Shown: in pieces, positions 10,865 through 17,813 of the stretch | How positions within the stretch are numbered: the first letter of the stretch is position 1 | How the letters are laid out: each line of letters opens with the position of its first letter | IMG/VR virus record: IMGVR_UViG_2529292871_000023 | Length of the DNA: 17,813 bases | From: a virus | Taxonomy: Duplodnaviria > Heunggongvirae > Uroviricota > Caudoviricetes | Direction: 5' to 3' (one strand) | Translations under genes and position numbers: made by a program | Notes under the pieces: model-generated | The model's database searches: none | Told to the model about the DNA's origin: nothing | The model's input: only the letters and a program-made list of their open reading frames with translations

Positions 10865-11623
10865 ATGAGGAACATAATGGCAGGTTTTTTAATATTCCTG
10901 TCTTCTGCTGCTTATGCTGATATCAATCTGTATGGTCCTGGTGGCCCGCATACAGCCTTGCTTGATGCAGCCAAACTTTATGCCGAAAAAACAGGTATTA
11001 TAGTGAACGTTCATTACGGCCCACAGAACAAATGGAATGAAGATGCCAAAAAAAATGCAGATATCTTGTTTGGCGCATCAGAACAATCTGCTCTGGCTAT
11101 CATTCGGGACCATAAAGACAGCTTCAGTGAAAAAGATATTCAGCCTCTTTATCTGCGAAAAAGTATTTTACTGGTAAAGAAAGGTAATCCTAAAAATATC
11201 CGGAGTATTGACGACCTGACCAGACCTGGGATTGGCGTAATTGTTAATGATGGTGGTGGTACCAGTAATACATCAGGCACTGGCGTCTGGGAAGATATTG
11301 CCGGACGTAAAGGGAATATAGAAACTGTCGCCGCAATCCGAAAAAATATTATTTTATATGCGCCCAATAGCGGAACTGCACGTAAGGCTCTTGAGAATCA
11401 GCCTGGAGCAGATGTCTGGATAACCTGGGCTGACTGGGCAGCCAGTAATCCAGAAATTGGTGATGTCGTGGAAATAGCGCCAGACTACGTGATATGGCGT
11501 GATATGAACATTACAGTACGTCAGGATGCAAATGATGAAACCCGTCGATTTGCAGAATGGCTACAAACCGATGAAGCGGCGCCTGCATTCAAAAAATATG
11601 GCTGGACCAGGAAAGGCACTTGA
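10865..11623 (+). CDS. Orphan periplasmic substrate-binding protein (ABC-transporter-type binding-protein fold, ModA/sulfate-binding-like), moron
   Basis: 252 aa. N-terminal signal peptide MRNIMAGFLIFLSSAAYA. AAGGAG ribosome-binding site. Preceded by about 400 bp of AT-rich DNA. No permease or ATPase gene adjacent. Confidence 0.75.
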   Translation: MRNIMAGFLIFLSSAAYADINLYGPGGPHTALLDAAKLYAEKTGIIVNVHYGPQNKWNEDAKKNADILFGASEQSALAIIRDHKDSFSEKDIQPLYLRKSILLVKKGNPKNIRSIDDLTRPGIGVIVNDGGGTSNTSGTGVWEDIAGRKGNIETVAAIRKNIILYAPNSGTARKALENQPGADVWITWADWAASNPEIGDVVEIAPDYVIWRDMNITVRQDANDETRRFAEWLQTDEAAPAFKKYGWTRKGT

Positions 11624-11766: not shown

Positions 11767-11958
11767 GCGAAAACGGTTTGCTGTAACGGCAGAGTTAAGT
11801 AGGATTGCTGCGGGTGCTTGAGGCTATCTGCCTCGGGCATGAACACCAACGGCAGATAGATAAAAGCCCCACCCGACTATAAATCGAAGTGAGGCCCCTA
11901 TATGCTCGTCACATATAGATTGCCTCTTACGGACCGAAAGGTCAAGGAGAAGCAGGCT

Positions 11959-12114
11959 ATGAAGCAGCAAAAGGCGATGTTAATCGCCCTGATCGTCATC
12001 TGTTTAACCGTCATAGTGACGGCACTGGTAACGAGGAAAGACCTCTGCGAGGTACGAATCCGAACCGGCCAGACGGAGGTCGCTGTCTTCACAGCTTACG
12101 AACCTGAGGAGTAA
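11959..12114 (+). CDS. hokD: Hok-family type I toxin (HokD/RelF)
   Basis: 51 aa, MKQQKAMLIALIVICLTVIVTALVTRKDLCEVRIRTGQTEVAVFTAYEPEE, matching recalled E. coli HokD. AGGAG ribosome-binding site. The listed ORF extends upstream in frame to 11902. Confidence 0.85.
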   Translation: MKQQKAMLIALIVICLTVIVTALVTRKDLCEVRIRTGQTEVAVFTAYEPEE

Positions 12115-13996: not shown

Positions 13997-14367
13997 ATGA
14001 CTGAACGCATAGAATTTGTTTTGCCTTACCCGCCGACGGTGAACACCTACTGGCGACGTCGTGGCAGCACATATTTTGGTCAAAAGCCGGTGAGCGTTAT
14101 CGCCGTGATGTGGCACTTATTGTTCGCCAGCAGCGGCTGAAATTAAACCTGTCCGGAAGGCTGGCGATAAAGATTATTGCAGAGCCACCGGATAAGCGCC
14201 GCCGCGACCTGGACAATATCCTGAAGGCACCACTGGATGCGCTTACGCATGCCGGACTACTTATAGACGACGAGCAGTTTGATGAAATCAATATTGTGCG
14301 CGGTCAGCTCGTTTCTGGTGGGCGGCTGGGCGTGAAGATAAAAATCACAGAACTGGAGTGCGCATGA
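13997..14367 (+). CDS. rusA: RusA Holliday-junction resolvase, frame-disrupted as written
   Basis: N-terminus MTERIEFVLPYPPTVNTYWRRRGSTYF stops at 14137. The C-terminal frame (14110..14367) reads ...ERYRRDVALIV...IKIIAEPPDKRRRDLDNILKAPLDALTHAGLLIDDEQ..., matching the RusA core DRRRRDLDN. Adding one base to the T4 run at 14074-14077 or the A4 run at 14082-14085 restores continuity. Confidence 0.75.
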
Positions 14368-15053
14368 ATAACCACTATTTACAGTTTGTGCGTGAGCAGC
14401 TCATTATCGCCACCGCTGATTTGAGTGGGGCAACAAAAGGTCAGCTTGAAGCCTGGCAGGAGAATGCCATGTTCGATACAGGGCGTTACAGGCGAAAAAA
14501 AATCCGGTACCGCGATGAAGTGACTGGAAAAATGATAACGCGGGATAATCCACCAATCCCGGGAAAGCAATCGCTGGCGAAGGTGACGTCAATTCCTCTG
14601 GTCAGTCCGGTTGAGTTTTCGACATCATCGTGGCGGCGGGCTGTTCTGTCTCTTGAAGAACATCATAAAGCCTGGTTGTTGTGGTGTTACAGCGGGAGTA
14701 TTTGTTGGGAATATCAGATCGCGATAACACAGTGGGCGTGGAATGAATTTAATACTCAATCCGGTACCAGAAAAATTGCTGGGAAAACGCAGGAACGCCT
14801 GAAAAAATTAATCTGGCTGGCGGCGCAGGCAGTAAAAGCAGAACTTTTTGGTGGGGAAGGTTATGAATATCAGGAGCTGGCATTACTGGCGGGAGTGACA
14901 ACTAAAAACTGGTCCAAAACATTTACTCGTCACTGGGTTGCAATGAAACACATTTTTCACCGACTGGATAGTGAGGCTTTATTATTTGTAATGAGAACAC
15001 GTTCAAAACAAAAGGCGGCATTTTCAAAGCAAAGTGTTGCAAAAGTAGATTGA
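14364..15053 (+). CDS. Putative late-gene antiterminator (Q-like), assigned mainly by position
   Basis: 230 aa from ATG 14364, which overlaps the rusA stop (ATGA). Lies between rusA and a terminator/tRNA cluster, the canonical Q position in lambdoid phages. No sequence-level match recalled. Confidence 0.45.
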   Translation: MNNHYLQFVREQLIIATADLSGATKGQLEAWQENAMFDTGRYRRKKIRYRDEVTGKMITRDNPPIPGKQSLAKVTSIPLVSPVEFSTSSWRRAVLSLEEHHKAWLLWCYSGSICWEYQIAITQWAWNEFNTQSGTRKIAGKTQERLKKLIWLAAQAVKAELFGGEGYEYQELALLAGVTTKNWSKTFTRHWVAMKHIFHRLDSEALLFVMRTRSKQKAAFSKQSVAKVD

Positions 15054-15116
15054 AAGGCATATATTTCATGCAAATCTGATATTTTGCCGATTTTGTACGT
15101 GATGGCAAAAGCAAAC

Positions 15117-15146
15117 AAAACCCGCCCACAAGCGGGTTTTGTTGTG
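15117..15146 (+). terminator. Intrinsic terminator-like hairpin downstream of the Q-like gene
   Basis: AAAACCCGC-ccacaa-GCGGGTTTT followed by GTTGTG; perfect 9-bp stem with a U-rich tail. Confidence 0.5.
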
Positions 15147-15246: not shown

Positions 15247-15322
15247 GGCCCTTTAGCTCAGTGGTGAGAGCGAGCGACTCATAATCGCCAGGTCGCTGGT
15301 TCAAATCCAGCAAGGGCCACCA
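15247..15322 (+). tRNA. tRNA with anticodon CAU, ileX/ileZ-like (tRNA-Ile2 lysidine type, or Met)
   Basis: Hand-folded cloverleaf: acceptor GGCCCTT/AAGGGCC, D-stem GCTC/GAGC, anticodon loop CTCATAA, T-arm GCTGG-TTCAAAT-CCAGC, discriminator A plus encoded CCA. Strong resemblance to E. coli ileX. Confidence 0.85.
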
Positions 15323-15323
15323 A

Positions 15324-15399
15324 CCGCCACTAGCTCATCAGGAAAGAACGTCACCCTTTAAGTTGAGTGTGCGAGGTTCGAGTCCCCGGTGGTGGTCCA
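15324..15399 (+). tRNA. tRNA-like element, probably a degenerate or pseudo tRNA
   Basis: Acceptor CCGCCAC/GTGGTGG (one G-U pair), T-loop TTCGAGT, encoded CCA. D-stem and T-stem each carry a mismatch, and the best anticodon stem (CACCC/GAGTG) encloses an 8-nt loop TTTAAGTT. Confidence 0.4.
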
Positions 15400-15412
15400 T
15401 TATCGGTATTCT

Positions 15413-15486
15413 GCGTTGTTAGCTCAGCAGGACAGAGCAATTGCCTTCTAAGCAATCGGTCACTGGTTCGACTCCAGTACAACGCG
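15413..15486 (+). tRNA. tRNA-Arg (anticodon UCU)
   Basis: Hand-folded: acceptor GCGTTGT/ACAACGC, D-stem GCTC/GAGC, anticodon stem ATTGC/GCAAT with loop CTTCTAA, T-arm ACTGG-TTCGACT-CCAGT. CCA is not encoded. Confidence 0.8.
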
Positions 15487-15502
15487 CTACACTTATTTTC
15501 CC

Positions 15503-15526
15503 GGCTCGCTTTTGCGGGCCTTTTTT
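15503..15526 (+). terminator. Rho-independent terminator after the tRNA cluster
   Basis: Stem GGCTCGC/GCGGGCC with 4-nt loop TTTT, followed by a T6 run. Confidence 0.6.
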
Positions 15527-15658
15527 GTATCTGCGCCACGCCCGGCGCATACCAACCACAGAGCCTTTCGGGGGGGAGCTTACGGAGTGGTCAGTGTGAC
15601 TTTCTCTGTGGGCAGATCGCTCCCGGGCGTTGGCTCACCCACCCAAAGGAACGTCACG

Positions 15659-16090
15659 ATGTTTGGTATTTTTGGTAAAAAAAGCCCGCAGAGCGGCAGT
15701 GGAAATTAAAAAGTTTGAGAAACGTGATCTGGCACAGGCGGTTATTAATGCTGCCTATCTGGTGGCCTATGCAGATGGTGAATGTGAGGCTTCAGAGAAA
15801 GCGAAGATCGAGCAGGTCTTGCGTAACCAGCCTGCGTTGTCCGCGTTTACGTCAGAAATTAATGCGATTAGCGCAACCATTATCGGTCAGCTGGATACGA
15901 ACTTTAAAACTGGTCGTCGAGCGGCGTTACGTGAGATCGAGGATGTGAAACACGATACGCGTGAAGCGGAAGATGTGCTGGATGTGGCGGTGGCCATTGC
16001 GAGGCAGACGGCGAAATAGAGCCGGAAGAGCGCAAGGTGCTGGAAGAGATTGCCGGTGTTCTGGGTCTTCGTCTGGAGAATTACCTGTGA
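15659..16090 (+). CDS. TerB-like (tellurite-resistance TerB domain) protein, frame-disrupted twice as written
   Basis: Intact reading MFGIFGKK + ARRAAVEIKKFEKRDLAQAVINAAYLVAYADGECEASEKAKIEQVL...DVLDVAVAIAR + ADGEIEPEERKVLEEIAGVLGLRLENYL shows the two ADGExxxxE repeats typical of TerB. Breaks are at the A7 run 15677-15683 and near GG at 16002-16004. Listed ORFs 15512..15709 and 15630..16019 are the pieces. Confidence 0.6.
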
Positions 16091-16254
16091 CGGTAAAACT
16101 GCGCCTGACTGTGGCTGCACTCCTGCTGTTTCTGGTGGTGATGGTGGATTTCACCAGCAGAATCATGTCGGTGCTGGCGGATGGGGGGCTGGTCTGCGGC
16201 ATTATGGTATTGCTGTGGCCGGTGATAAAAAGAAACAGCCTGCATAATGCTTGA
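16087..16254 (+). CDS. Small hydrophobic protein with two predicted transmembrane segments
   Basis: GTG start overlapping the TerB-like stop (GTGA). 55 aa, MTVKLRLTVAALLLFLVVMVDF...GGLVCGIMVLLWPVI. Confidence 0.4.
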   Translation: MTVKLRLTVAALLLFLVVMVDFTSRIMSVLADGGLVCGIMVLLWPVIKRNSLHNA

Positions 16255-16568
16255 TTTTTTTGTTTGCTGTTTATTAAAAACACTTCTGCATGGTGAATCC
16301 CCCTGTGCGGTGGGGCAATCAGCAAGAAGGAATATGGGGTAATCGCGGATTCAGGTGCTGATACTGAATTCACCGGGAGGCACCCGGCACCATGCTTTGC
16401 CACAAAAGTGTTATTTCTGTTTTTCTCAAACTATCATCGTTATCCCTTTATTTTCGGCTGCGCATGGCGCGGCCTTTTTTTTACGACCAGCCACTGGCAG
16501 ATGGTCATCCTGTGATTTGATTCCGCTTCCGGCTTTTTAACTCTGTTCCTCTACACGGGAGAAATTCG

Positions 16569-17813
16569 ATGTCGATTAAACATTACGATGTTATCAGGGC
16601 GGCGTCGCCGTCAGACCTTGCGGAAAAGCTGACACACAAACTGAAAGAGGGCTGGCAGCCATACGGCGGACCGGTTGCCATTACGCCGTACACACTGATG
16701 CAGGCGGTGGCTATTGAAGGAGAGCCACAGGTCGGCCCTTCATCTGAGCCGGATTGGTACTACGTCATCGTACTGGCCGGGCAGTCCAATGCAATGGCTT
16801 ACGGTGAAGGGCTTCCGCTGCCGGATTCATACGATGCTCCGGATCCGCGCATTAAACAGCTGGCGCGCCGCAGTACAGTGACGCCGGGTGGGGCTGCCTG
16901 CAGATATAACGATATTATTCCGGCTGACCACTGTCTGCATGATGTGCAGGATATGAGTACGCTGAATCATCCGAGGGCTGACCTGAGCAAAGGGCAGTAC
17001 GGCTGTGTCGGTCAGGGTTTACATATTGCCAAAAAACTGCTCCCGTATATCCCGAATAACGCGGGGATCCTGCTGGTACCATGCTGTCGTGGTGGTTCGG
17101 CATTTACCCAGGGCGCGGAGGGGACATTCAGCGAGTCCACGGGGGCCAGTCAGGATTCGGCACGCTGGGGGGTGGGCAAGCCGTTATATCAGGATCTGAT
17201 TTCCCGCACAAAAGCGGCATTGCAGAAAAATCCCAAAAACGTTCTGCTGGCCGTCTGCTGGATGCAGGGTGAGTTTGACATGAGCGCCGCCACCCACGCA
17301 CAGCAACCTGCGCTGTTTACAGCCATGCTGACACAGTTTCGTGCTGACCTCTCCGTGTTTAACGCGCAGTGCCATGGTGGCAGTGCTGCAGATGTGCCGT
17401 GGGTTTGTGGTGACACGACGTATTACTGGAAAAATACATACGCTACCCAGTACGACACCGTGTACGGCGGGTATAAAAACAGGGAGAGTGAGGGCGTTTA
17501 TTTTGTGCCCTTCATGACAGATGGTAACGGCGTCAATACCGCCACTAACGCGCCGGCAGAAGATCCGGATATTCCGGCATCAGGATATTACGGTGCGGCA
17601 TCGAGAACGAATGGAAACCAGGTATCATCAAACCGCCCGACACATTTCAGTTCATGGGCGCGCAGGAGCATTATTCCGGATCGTCTGGCAACCGCTATTC
17701 TGAACGCAGCCGGGCGCACCTCAGCCTTCATCAGTGGTAAGGCACCGGAAATCAAACCCTCGCCCGGCGGCAACACCGCCATCGGGTACCGTCTGCAGAT
17801 ACGTCCGTTCGCA
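16569..17813 (+). CDS. nanS: Prophage-type sialate O-acetylesterase (NanS-p-like, SGNH/SASA hydrolase), 3'-truncated by the window edge
   Basis: Open from ATG 16569 (GGGAGA ribosome-binding site) to the window end with no stop over 415 codons; absent from the ORF track because it is open-ended. Active-site-type motif VLAGQSNAMAYG. Position downstream of Q and the tRNAs matches nanS-p in Stx-type lambdoid prophages. Confidence 0.75.
   Translation, partial: MSIKHYDVIRAASPSDLAEKLTHKLKEGWQPYGGPVAITPYTLMQAVAIEGEPQVGPSSEPDWYYVIVLAGQSNAMAYGEGLPLPDSYDAPDPRIKQLARRSTVTPGGAACRYNDIIPADHCLHDVQDMSTLNHPRADLSKGQYGCVGQGLHIAKKLLPYIPNNAGILLVPCCRGGSAFTQGAEGTFSESTGASQDSARWGVGKPLYQDLISRTKAALQKNPKNVLLAVCWMQGEFDMSAATHAQQPALFTAMLTQFRADLSVFNAQCHGGSAADVPWVCGDTTYYWKNTYATQYDTVYGGYKNRESEGVYFVPFMTDGNGVNTATNAPAEDPDIPASGYYGAASRTNGNQVSSNRPTHFSSWARRSIIPDRLATAILNAAGRTSAFISGKAPEIKPSPGGNTAIGYRLQIRPFA

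Follow-up and report, generated by a model that had tools for sequence, protein, structure and literature searches.

The tciA–tciB locus

The window analysed here is the whole of a 17,813-nucleotide stretch of viral DNA (IMG/VR record IMGVR_UViG_2529292871_000023; Caudoviricetes). It comprises the left half of a lambdoid prophage at ompW, and its best match among complete Escherichia coli genomes is with prophages of E. coli O55:H7, at 98.4% identity. Towards its right end lie two overlapping genes, tciA and tciB, that are preceded by a conserved RNA leader. The locus is probably a decayed tciA–tciB pair with a structured leader, encoding a late-expressed, membrane-associated TerB module whose translation would be controlled by the leader. 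The three elements are as follows.

15531..15661 (+), structured leader RNA of tciA; match to covariance model R1 with 144.7 bits
15659..16090 (+), tciA, TerB family, 143 aa when intact, here a pseudogene or frameshifted; Pfam, PHROGs and alignment
16087..16254 (+), tciB, DUF3927 small inner-membrane protein of 55 aa with two predicted transmembrane segments, intact; Pfam PF13064, PHROG and hydropathy

The protein pair itself is already known. The tciA–tciB module was first named in phage P1 and is annotated in PHROGs and, for about 800 complete E. coli genomes, in RefSeq; the genes are called tciA and tciB in phage JLK-2012 as in P1, and in hundreds of genomes RefSeq gives the genes at this position the labels 'TerB family protein' and 'DUF3927 family protein'. 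The leader is undescribed, as far as the tools used can tell. It fills the first 130 nt of the interval in which an earlier note on this DNA had placed the two genes, and was passed over there without comment.

TciA and TciB

The TerB-like open reading frame (ORF) runs from the ATG at 15659 to the TGA at 16088–16090, and its repaired product is 143 aa in length, a little shorter than the earlier estimate of about 146 aa. The repaired protein matches the Pfam family TerB (PF05099) with 60.5 bits against a cut-off of 24.4, over residues 26–138. It falls within PHROG 632 (phrog_632, 'tellurite resistance') with E=1.4e-69, and shares 99% identity with proteins that databases list as 'tellurite resistance TerB family protein'. 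A profile built from 17 diverse homologues is matched at positions 13–137 (E=1.6e-15) to Klebsiella TerB, the structure of which has been solved by nuclear magnetic resonance (2JXU). These sequence comparisons confirm the TerB domain that the earlier note had proposed, and show TciA to be a full-length homologue of TerB. The search of NCBIfam with TciA gave only a sub-threshold similarity, to the TerB-like region of DjlA.

TciA is a soluble, acidic protein with a conserved N-terminus (MFGxFxKK) and two acidic motifs of the form ADGE-x-E, and hydropathy analysis found no hydrophobic segment in it. It shares with the TerB of the terZABCDEF cluster (Klebsiella, 2JXU) the same domain over the whole length, a size of ~145–150 aa and the acidic DG(E/D) motifs, but the two differ in setting. 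The reported partner of TerB in the ter cluster is the multi-span protein TerC, whereas that proposed for TciA is a 55-aa protein with two transmembrane segments. TciA is phage-borne, including in virulent phages, and lacks the context of a ter operon; none of terC, terD, terE and terZ was found near tciA in the window, where the neighbours are Q, tRNA genes, the DUF3927 gene, an STnc100 small RNA (sRNA) and a SASA-family esterase.

The second gene begins with a GTG at 16087 that overlaps the stop codon of tciA (GTGA, 16087–16090), and ends at 16254. Its 55-aa product matches DUF3927 (PF13064) with 58.6 bits against a cut-off of 25, and belongs to PHROG 1470 (phrog_1470, 'TciB-like...'; E=6.7e-29). 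Two hydrophobic peaks, at about residues 5–22 and 26–47 with hydropathy of 2.66 and 2.25, are separated by a conserved DFTS turn. The coupled two-segment membrane protein of the earlier note is borne out, and so is the constancy of the pair. A small membrane ORF starts between −7 and 0 nt from the tciA stop in 15/17 species-level loci, and TciA lies directly upstream of TciB in 214 of the 215 TciB hits among all fetched loci. Such an ORF also follows tciA in P1, Pollock, FSL SP-076, Arash, LIET2 and Kp4872-1, and in weaker form in Parshik. The arrangement shows tciB as a gene translationally coupled to tciA, judged from the overlap, and TciB is almost never encoded without TciA. TerB–DUF3927 fusions in a single ORF are present in the databases (P0007, 197 aa, from E. 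coli PA11, and P0063), apparently arising from a frameshift at the overlap, and could be used as natural tethered constructs.

Where TciB is absent, another membrane protein often comes after TciA, and outside the Enterobacterales TciA appears to recruit different membrane partners. In Pseudomonas phage Zuri, Pseudomonas juntendi and a Paracoccus metagenome-assembled genome it is followed by a different protein of 67 aa, with a single transmembrane segment and the motif C..YGW..ER..K..VGC (gp47 in Zuri, L110:1643-1846; also loci L098 and L100). In Vibrio phage D505 TciA is followed by an Na_Ca_ex antiporter (PF01699, E=4e-28; L108:1699-2781).

The nearest named system is tciABC of P1. The P1 homologue of TciA is 42% identical over its full length, a DUF3927 TciB start abuts the tciA stop, and tRNA genes lie nearby. 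The differences are several. P1 has tciC at the place where the window has an STnc100 sRNA, and no tciC-like third small ORF was found after tciB in the window. The tci genes of P1 lie downstream of the C1-controlled ban promoters, while those of the window lie in a late operon; and the tciA of the window is frameshifted. Finally, the structured leader of the window is absent from P1, because upl is encoded on the opposite strand upstream.

Frame breaks in tciA

The reading frame of tciA is broken at two places in the window. The first is a run of seven adenines at 15677–15683, where phage JLK-2012 has six in an alignment with it and an O55:H7-type copy. In the A7 form a TTG at 15663 falls in frame with the body of tciA; this is the start chosen by PGAP in strain 2013C-4465, and the protein clusters P0016 and P0056, one of which is named for O157:H7, begin with MVFLVKK. 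The A7 form is common to the O55:H7 and O157:H7 copies in finished genomes. From this comparison the run is a natural polymorphism, and not simply a lesion.

The second break is a missing G at 16001/16002 (GCGGAG becoming GCGAG) that brings in a premature TAG at 16017–16019, and turns AIAEADGEIEPEE... into AIARQTAK-stop. The first acidic motif (YADGECE) is kept, the second (EADGEIEPEE) is out of frame and the C-terminal helix is lost too. The two frame breaks of the earlier note are both present, but of the two only the G deletion is, from the translation, clearly inactivating; because of this 1-nt deletion the present copy of tciA is probably non-functional.

Across 800 complete E. coli genomes, with 2,667 places compared, an 81-nt probe spanning the G deletion had no match of ≥99%; the deletion is therefore either private to this sequence or an error. 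If both breaks were sequencing or assembly errors the locus would be an intact, ordinary copy of tciAB. In favour of such errors, each break is a single-base change of length in a short run (A7, and GG to G), and the deletion is seen in 0/2,667 other copies. The A7 form is genuine, however, given its presence in finished O55:H7 and O157:H7 genomes, and the leader carries a helix-breaking substitution, though one that relatives share. Moreover, the window differs from its closest relative by 265 clustered substitutions in a mosaic pattern and by 19 indels, which fit natural decay. The indels include a 22-bp deletion at 2479, within a region (1576-4010, minus strand) that holds three ORF fragments in place of the single intact 2.4-kb exonuclease gene of the O55:H7 relative. 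Another, at 14079, removes 1 nt at the position of rusA in the relative. On account of these clustered substitutions and indels the window is read as a decaying prophage, and we regard error at both sites as a rather unlikely, though serious, alternative. The G deletion taken singly has a similar chance of being a sequencing error, and tciA would then be intact save for the A7/TTG start variant, which would tell against decay of the gene.

Broken copies are not confined to the window. Among 93 non-redundant loci picked by the leader alone, 75 have both genes intact, and about 8–10 have a broken tciA with an intact tciB.

Conservation and structure of the leader RNA

Identity over 80 IMG/VR loci is 97-99% in the 131 nt upstream of tciA, compared with 89% to 98% in the coding sequence. 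The leader is also found before tciA in Pantoea, Pseudescherichia, Franconibacter, Buttiauxella, a Klebsiella phage and Erwinia jumbo phages, and it precedes both subfamilies of TciA, between which the protein identity is only ~42%. Conserved more strongly than the genes after it, the leader is a more valuable lead than the protein pair.

The predicted structure comprises four helices, with the Shine–Dalgarno (SD) sequence at the 3′ end.

15533-37 with 15544-48 (+), H1, a 5-bp hairpin with a conserved CGC-rich loop
15556-63 with 15604-11 (+), H2 (putative pseudoknot), CCACAGAG with CUCUGUGG; indicated by covariation, crosses H3 and H4
15564-68 (+), anti-SD, an invariant CCUUU between H2 and H3, complementary to the AAAGG of the SD
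15572-79 with 15633-40 (+), H3, GGGUGAGC with GCUCACCC; ends 4 nt before the SD
15584-92 with 15615-23 (+), H4, a variable helix of 8-10 bp; indicated by covariation
15645-50 (+), SD AAAGGA, with the ATG at 15659; the leader always ends at the SD and ATG, with fixed spacing

Compensatory changes are found in all of H1, H2, H3 and H4. With a plain MAFFT alignment RNAalifold recovered H2, and only H2, with compensation in 6/7 pairs; the covariation score of this alignment is 0.212 against 0.142 for shuffles (0/500 reach 0.212) and 0.09-0.12 for slid partners. The covariance model was built from eight close sequences using H1, H3 and H4 only, with H2 left out, and it finds divergent copies of the leader at E-values from 1e-17 to ~1e-3. 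Over the 89 distinct sequences that the model aligned, pairing is seen in 95.3% of cells and double changes in 24/35 pairs, but H3 and H4 needed this model-guided alignment and their covariation was counted mainly there, which biases their counts. The covariation score in this alignment is 0.226, compared with 0.116 for shuffles (0/500) and 0.03-0.08 for slid partners. H2, which lies outside the model, is 96.4% paired in the same alignment with three doubly changed pairs, and a sequence's own H2 loop is complementary at ≥6/7 positions in 15/16 sequence classes, as against 51% for swapped pairs. Covariation is uninformative about the pairs between anti-SD and SD, which do not vary.

G.U pairs are frequent in H4. 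Alignment columns 77/161 are GU in 29 sequences, 82/157 in 54 and 83/156 (as UG) in 19. Since such pairs would appear as C.A mismatches on the other DNA strand, the constraint is strand-specific. In the window itself the leader has a G at 15575 in place of the consensus U, creating a G.A mismatch that breaks one pair of H3; this is common to the O55:H7 copies. By these comparisons the leader has the properties of a conserved, structured sense-strand RNA adjoining a start codon, of the cis-regulatory type. Rfam 15 gave no plus-strand hit at E<=1 over 15527-15658, nor any match to the leader copies of VT2-Sakai, HK639, Parshik and Kp4872-1.

Such conservation might instead belong to an element acting as DNA: a promoter or operator, a recombination boundary for the exchange of modules, or a target for insertion sequences. 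H1 is a short palindrome and so a possible operator, exchangeable accessory genes have the element at their borders, and in relatives of PPompW the IS110-family insertion sequence ISEc20 is inserted inside it. A DNA element would not explain the strand-specific constraint shown by the G.U pairs of H4, nor why pairing in four helices, one of them long-range, survives many double changes. The element always stops at the SD and ATG with a fixed spacing, and no consistent −35/−10 pair was found in it. We consider a DNA-level element very unlikely, and the structured RNA is retained in what follows.

The ISEc20 copy lies just past the anti-SD (equivalent to about 15576 in the window) in the Stx2a phage Stx2_14040 / PPompW_14040 (L248:2582-4040). 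In the ISEc20-bearing ompW relatives everything up to the terminase genes is missing.

Several other identities were considered and set aside. The leader is unlikely to be a Pas sRNA as described by Zhu et al. 2026, in that these end in terminators while the leader starts after one. Nor is it PasD by that description, since STnc100/PasD is at 16259-16431; PasD flanks the esterase, and PasA adjoins the holin/lysozyme operon. A double-pseudoknot ribozyme like that of hepatitis delta virus was rejected because, with H4 pairing across the 3′ strand of H2, the order of strands does not fit, and none of the ribozyme models gave a match. Scanning and inspection told against a sigma-70 promoter within the leader, as they gave no consistent −35/−10 pair across the variants.

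Predicted folding and proposed action of the leader

Single sequences of 20 diverse copies were folded to their minimum free energy. H3 is present in 16 of these folds, most of the SD is paired in 14 and CCUUU:AAAGG is formed in 11; the median z-score is −3.1. In the thermodynamic prediction folds with H3 that bury the SD are 6.6-17 kcal/mol more stable than nested folds with H2, in which most of the SD is free.

The favoured fold would be a long hairpin, formed by the anti-SD:SD pairing together with H3 and H4, that buries the SD and so controls translation. H2 would link the apical loop with the 5′ flank, and act as a pseudoknot or else as an alternative fold that forms earlier and leaves the SD free. 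The 3′ strand of H2 is transcribed ahead of the 3′ strands of H4 and H3, so H2 could be a transient 'on' fold, or else a pseudoknot on a bent hairpin. H2 and the fully extended hairpin are incompatible in the model without a sharp bend, a difficulty for the proposed fold, and H2 may be either a pseudoknot or a switch. The mechanism of translational control is one that we infer from these predictions.

The hairpin is predicted to consist of two stems, a lower and an upper, with an asymmetric internal loop between them. This shape resembles the RNase III sites of phage T7, and the T7 R-sites sit between the cistrons of long phage transcripts, as the leader does. By analogy, cleavage by RNase III at the leader hairpin would free the SD. 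The leader may also be likened to riboswitch platforms and RNA thermometers that sequester the SD; it likewise buries the SD, here by means of the invariant CCUUU in an irregular hairpin. It differs from these leaders, and from the T7 RNase III hairpins, in having the additional covarying H2 and the CGC-rich loop of H1, and in matching no Rfam family.

The leader before unrelated genes

Among the fetched loci, hits of the leader model precede at least 15 unrelated protein families. In addition to TciA these include the antirepressor-like KilA-N, Rha, P22_AR_N, ANT and AntA proteins, HNH_3 endonucleases, a glycosyltransferase, a Phage_Tail_Tip-related protein, an NMT1-like periplasmic protein and a lone TciB-like ORF. 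The ant-type copy is present in 317 phage records, most of which are Stx1 and Stx2 (Shiga toxin) converting phages. In VT2-Sakai the leader lies between R and ant inside the lysis cassette (L353:2501-2610), ant being located between R and Rz in Stx phages, while a copy in HK639 has the major tail gene on one side and a moron-like ORF on the other (L352:1501-1607). A hairpin and T-run directly precede 152/199 distinct copies.

With unrelated genes following it, the leader is unlikely to have a TerB-specific ligand, and the variety of those genes argues against a sensor of any gene-specific metabolite. The favoured view is that the leader is a general gate on the translation of accessory genes within long late transcripts. 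There is about an even chance that it is the founding example of an undescribed and widespread class of phage cis-regulatory RNA with this role, composed of a hairpin, a long stem that sequesters the SD and a pseudoknot from loop to flank. The gated genes would include tciA, the antirepressor-like genes (ant, KilA-N and Rha) that Stx and other lambdoid phages carry, and HNH endonucleases. Should the leader respond to a signal, which might be a host factor, an ion, RNase III or co-transcriptional timing, Shiga-toxin phages would have in it a common switch for antirepressors and cargo. As a regulator, if it is one, it gives a single testable way to learn how prophages keep their cargo and antirepressors silent and then release them.

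Genomic context and transcription

The features on either side of the pair are as follows.

14358-15053 (+), Q gene; annotated at the equivalent place in the O55:H7 prophage
15037..15065 (+), candidate late promoter, pR′-like (TTGCAA, 17 nt, TATATT), overlapping the end of Q; consensus scan only
15114..15143 (+), 13-bp GC-rich hairpin with T/A runs on its flanks, at the tR′ position; terminator scan and sequence
15247..15487 (+), tRNA cluster of three genes or tRNA-like sequences; ARAGORN
15247-15322 (+), tRNA(CAT); ARAGORN
15324-15399 (+), degenerate tRNA-like sequence in the middle of the cluster; anticodon undetermined by ARAGORN, Rfam 23.1 bits
15413-15487 (+), tRNA-Arg(TCT); ARAGORN
15503..15526 (+), intrinsic-terminator-like hairpin (15503-15520) and T-run, directly 5′ of the leader; terminator scan
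16259..16431 (+), STnc100-family sRNA; Rfam RF02076 with 100.8 bits, the gathering score being 47
16456..16484 (+), intrinsic-terminator-like hairpin (16456-16474) and T-run, closing the tciAB–STnc100 unit; terminator scan
16569..17813 (+), nanS-p-like SASA-family carbohydrate esterase, 5′ part with a DUF1737 N-terminus, running off the window; annotation of homologous loci

The outer two members of the tRNA cluster score 72.5 and 68.1 bits in Rfam, and the middle one is sub-threshold; it is called tRNA-Lys in some records and left out by RefSeq. Downstream of the pair STnc100 starts 5 nt past the tciB stop. STnc100 is related to the PasD sRNAs (Zhu, Shabalina and Storz; Zhu et al. 2026).

The gene order in the window is Q, three tRNAs or tRNA-like sequences, tciA, tciB, STnc100, terminator and SASA esterase, while in the Stx1 phage 75/02 it is Q, stxA, stxB, STnc100-like sequence and SASA esterase. 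This synteny upholds the earlier proposal that the pair occupies the stx-equivalent slot of the late region, between the tRNAs and the nanS-p-like gene. Both cargoes lie between Q or the tRNAs and an STnc100-like sequence with nanS-p, and expression by Q-dependent read-through is expected for both. The products differ, stxAB encoding a secreted toxin whereas tciAB would give a cytoplasmic and an inner-membrane protein, and the tciAB pair also occurs outside lambdoid phages. The leader–tciA–tciB–STnc100 arrangement is present in Klebsiella phage Kp4872-1 as well.

A moron, as defined in work on HK97 and HK022, is a gene with its own promoter and terminator placed between conserved phage genes. 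At tciAB there is a terminator-like hairpin on the 3′ side at 16456-16474, and another on the 5′ side of the unit, but a scan of 15527-15658 on the plus strand called no sigma-70 promoter, the scan being a crude consensus test that a weak or non-sigma-70 promoter might escape. Since no plus-strand promoter was found between the upstream terminator and the ATG, expression would be by Q-dependent read-through. The site at 15037..15065 is presumably pR′, and transcription would proceed from it by Q-antiterminated read-through into the pair.

tRNA genes adjoin tciA in the window, in JLK-2012 and in P1, and jumbo phages show a linkage to tRNA-Cys too.

Distribution of the pair

Of 5,426 complete genomes of E. 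coli, 800 have the tciA segment, the median being 4 copies per genome, and full-length homologues of TciA are found in 132 phage records. These include lambdoid phages; P1, P7, D6 and SJ46; Pseudomonas siphoviruses; N4-like virulent phages (Pollock, FSL SP-058, SP-076, and Vibrio and Pseudomonas members); and jumbo phages of Erwinia and Salmonella, in which the identity is ~67-75%. In the virulent phages tciA sits among early, tRNA and nucleotide-metabolism genes. By this distribution tciAB looks like a factor of the phage lytic cycle rather than a resistance gene. It is one of few accessory modules common to lambdoid, P1-like, N4-like and jumbo phages, and its phenotype would inform broadly on what phages need from the host membrane.

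In the Machinavirus jumbo phages of Erwinia and Salmonella (L242-L244 and L102) the leader, tciA and tciB lie within the first 2.5 kb of the genome, directly after tRNA-Cys in pSal-SNUABM-04, ChrisDB and pEa_SNUABM_10.

Possible function of TciA and TciB

TerB of the ter cluster has been reported as an interaction partner of the membrane protein TerC (PMC11003894). This report, the lack of a transmembrane segment in TciA, the two such segments of TciB and the alternative membrane partners found elsewhere together lead to a model at the inner membrane, with a possible link to divalent cations. TciA would dock on the cytoplasmic face of the inner membrane via TciB, as TerB may do with TerC. The pair might then serve as a divalent-cation or membrane-stress module that helps the infected cell during lytic growth, and would not be acting as a tellurite pump. 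The presence of the family in strictly virulent phages argues for a role in the phage's own cycle, and against lysogenic conversion. Action during lytic growth is also favoured by the place of the P1 genes, downstream of the C1-controlled ban promoters.

Conversion is nevertheless what the inherited P1 annotation implies, with resistance to tellurite and/or colicin, or else inhibited cell division, as the phenotype. The names derive from homology to TerB of the ter cluster, and the slot is a classical position for cargo. Yet no other ter genes (terC, terD, terE and so on) are nearby, and the authors describing Pseudomonas phage PMBT3 argued that a lone terB should be inactive and not confer tellurite resistance (PMC8421299). 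In the strictly virulent phages where the family is common conversion is irrelevant. The consensus scan found no promoter belonging to the pair, which has a terminator directly upstream, and tciA is broken in ~10% of prophage copies. A conversion determinant is accordingly judged highly improbable. Hundreds of pathogenic E. coli genomes carry the gene, often as several copies, under the label 'tellurite resistance'; no tested function was found for it, and the label calls for caution.

The pair could also be cargo for superinfection exclusion or defence, forming a membrane complex that keeps out the DNA of other phages or aborts their infections. A phage-inhibition phenotype has been associated with the plasmid ter cluster, and some small membrane proteins of moron slots, such as gp15 of HK97, can exclude phages; the same leader precedes a moron in an HK97-gp15-like position in HK639. 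The earlier note had hinted at such an anti-phage link, but a search of PADLOC-DB 2.0 for defence systems lent it no support: the best match of TciA was to PDC-S48 (E=0.0026 over 35 residues), an unrelated candidate, TciB had none and nothing was significant. The promoter scan gave no signal for expression in the prophage state, and the pair is kept in jumbo and N4-like lytic phages near early and metabolic genes, which points to a role in their own cycle. Exclusion seems unlikely on this evidence.

A third alternative is a module for the timing of lysis, in which TciB would be a holin- or antiholin-like protein with two transmembrane segments and TciA its cytoplasmic regulator. TciB resembles the small class II holin-like proteins in size and topology, the lambdoid pair is in the late region upstream of the lysis genes, and in Actinobacillus phage pPE4 the pair is directly upstream of two holin genes. 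Lambdoid prophages, however, own complete sets of holin, endolysin and spanin, and in P1 and the N4-like, jumbo and Pseudomonas phages the lysis genes are remote from the pair, which lies with early, tRNA or nucleotide-metabolism genes. We give this proposal scarcely any weight.

The reading of tciAB as a late-expressed, membrane-associated module of the lytic cycle has several points that weigh against it. In a CRISPR interference screen tciA, tciB and tciC of P1 were non-essential (PMC10695390). A search of the literature for a functional test of tciA, tciB or DUF3927 found only homology annotation, the P1 screening call and the argument on lone terB. The contact between TciA and TciB, the binding of cations and the analogy with TerC are steps that we infer. 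Lastly, with ~10% of prophage copies having a broken tciA, selection in lysogens is not strict.

Other features of the prophage

Three further features of the window lie away from the tciAB locus. In the early-left region there is a DicF sRNA (Rfam RF00039, 76.7 bits) at 4667-4718 (-), that adjoins dicB in the O55:H7 relative. A type I toxin–antitoxin pair is formed by a sok RNA (RF01794, 103.9 bits) at 11812-11961 (+) and a hokD-type toxin ORF at ~11959-12114. Between the replication and nin-like regions an ORF of 252 aa at 10865-11623 (+) corresponds to paa of the O55:H7 relative, encoding the AcfC-family adhesin Paa, and is virulence-associated cargo.

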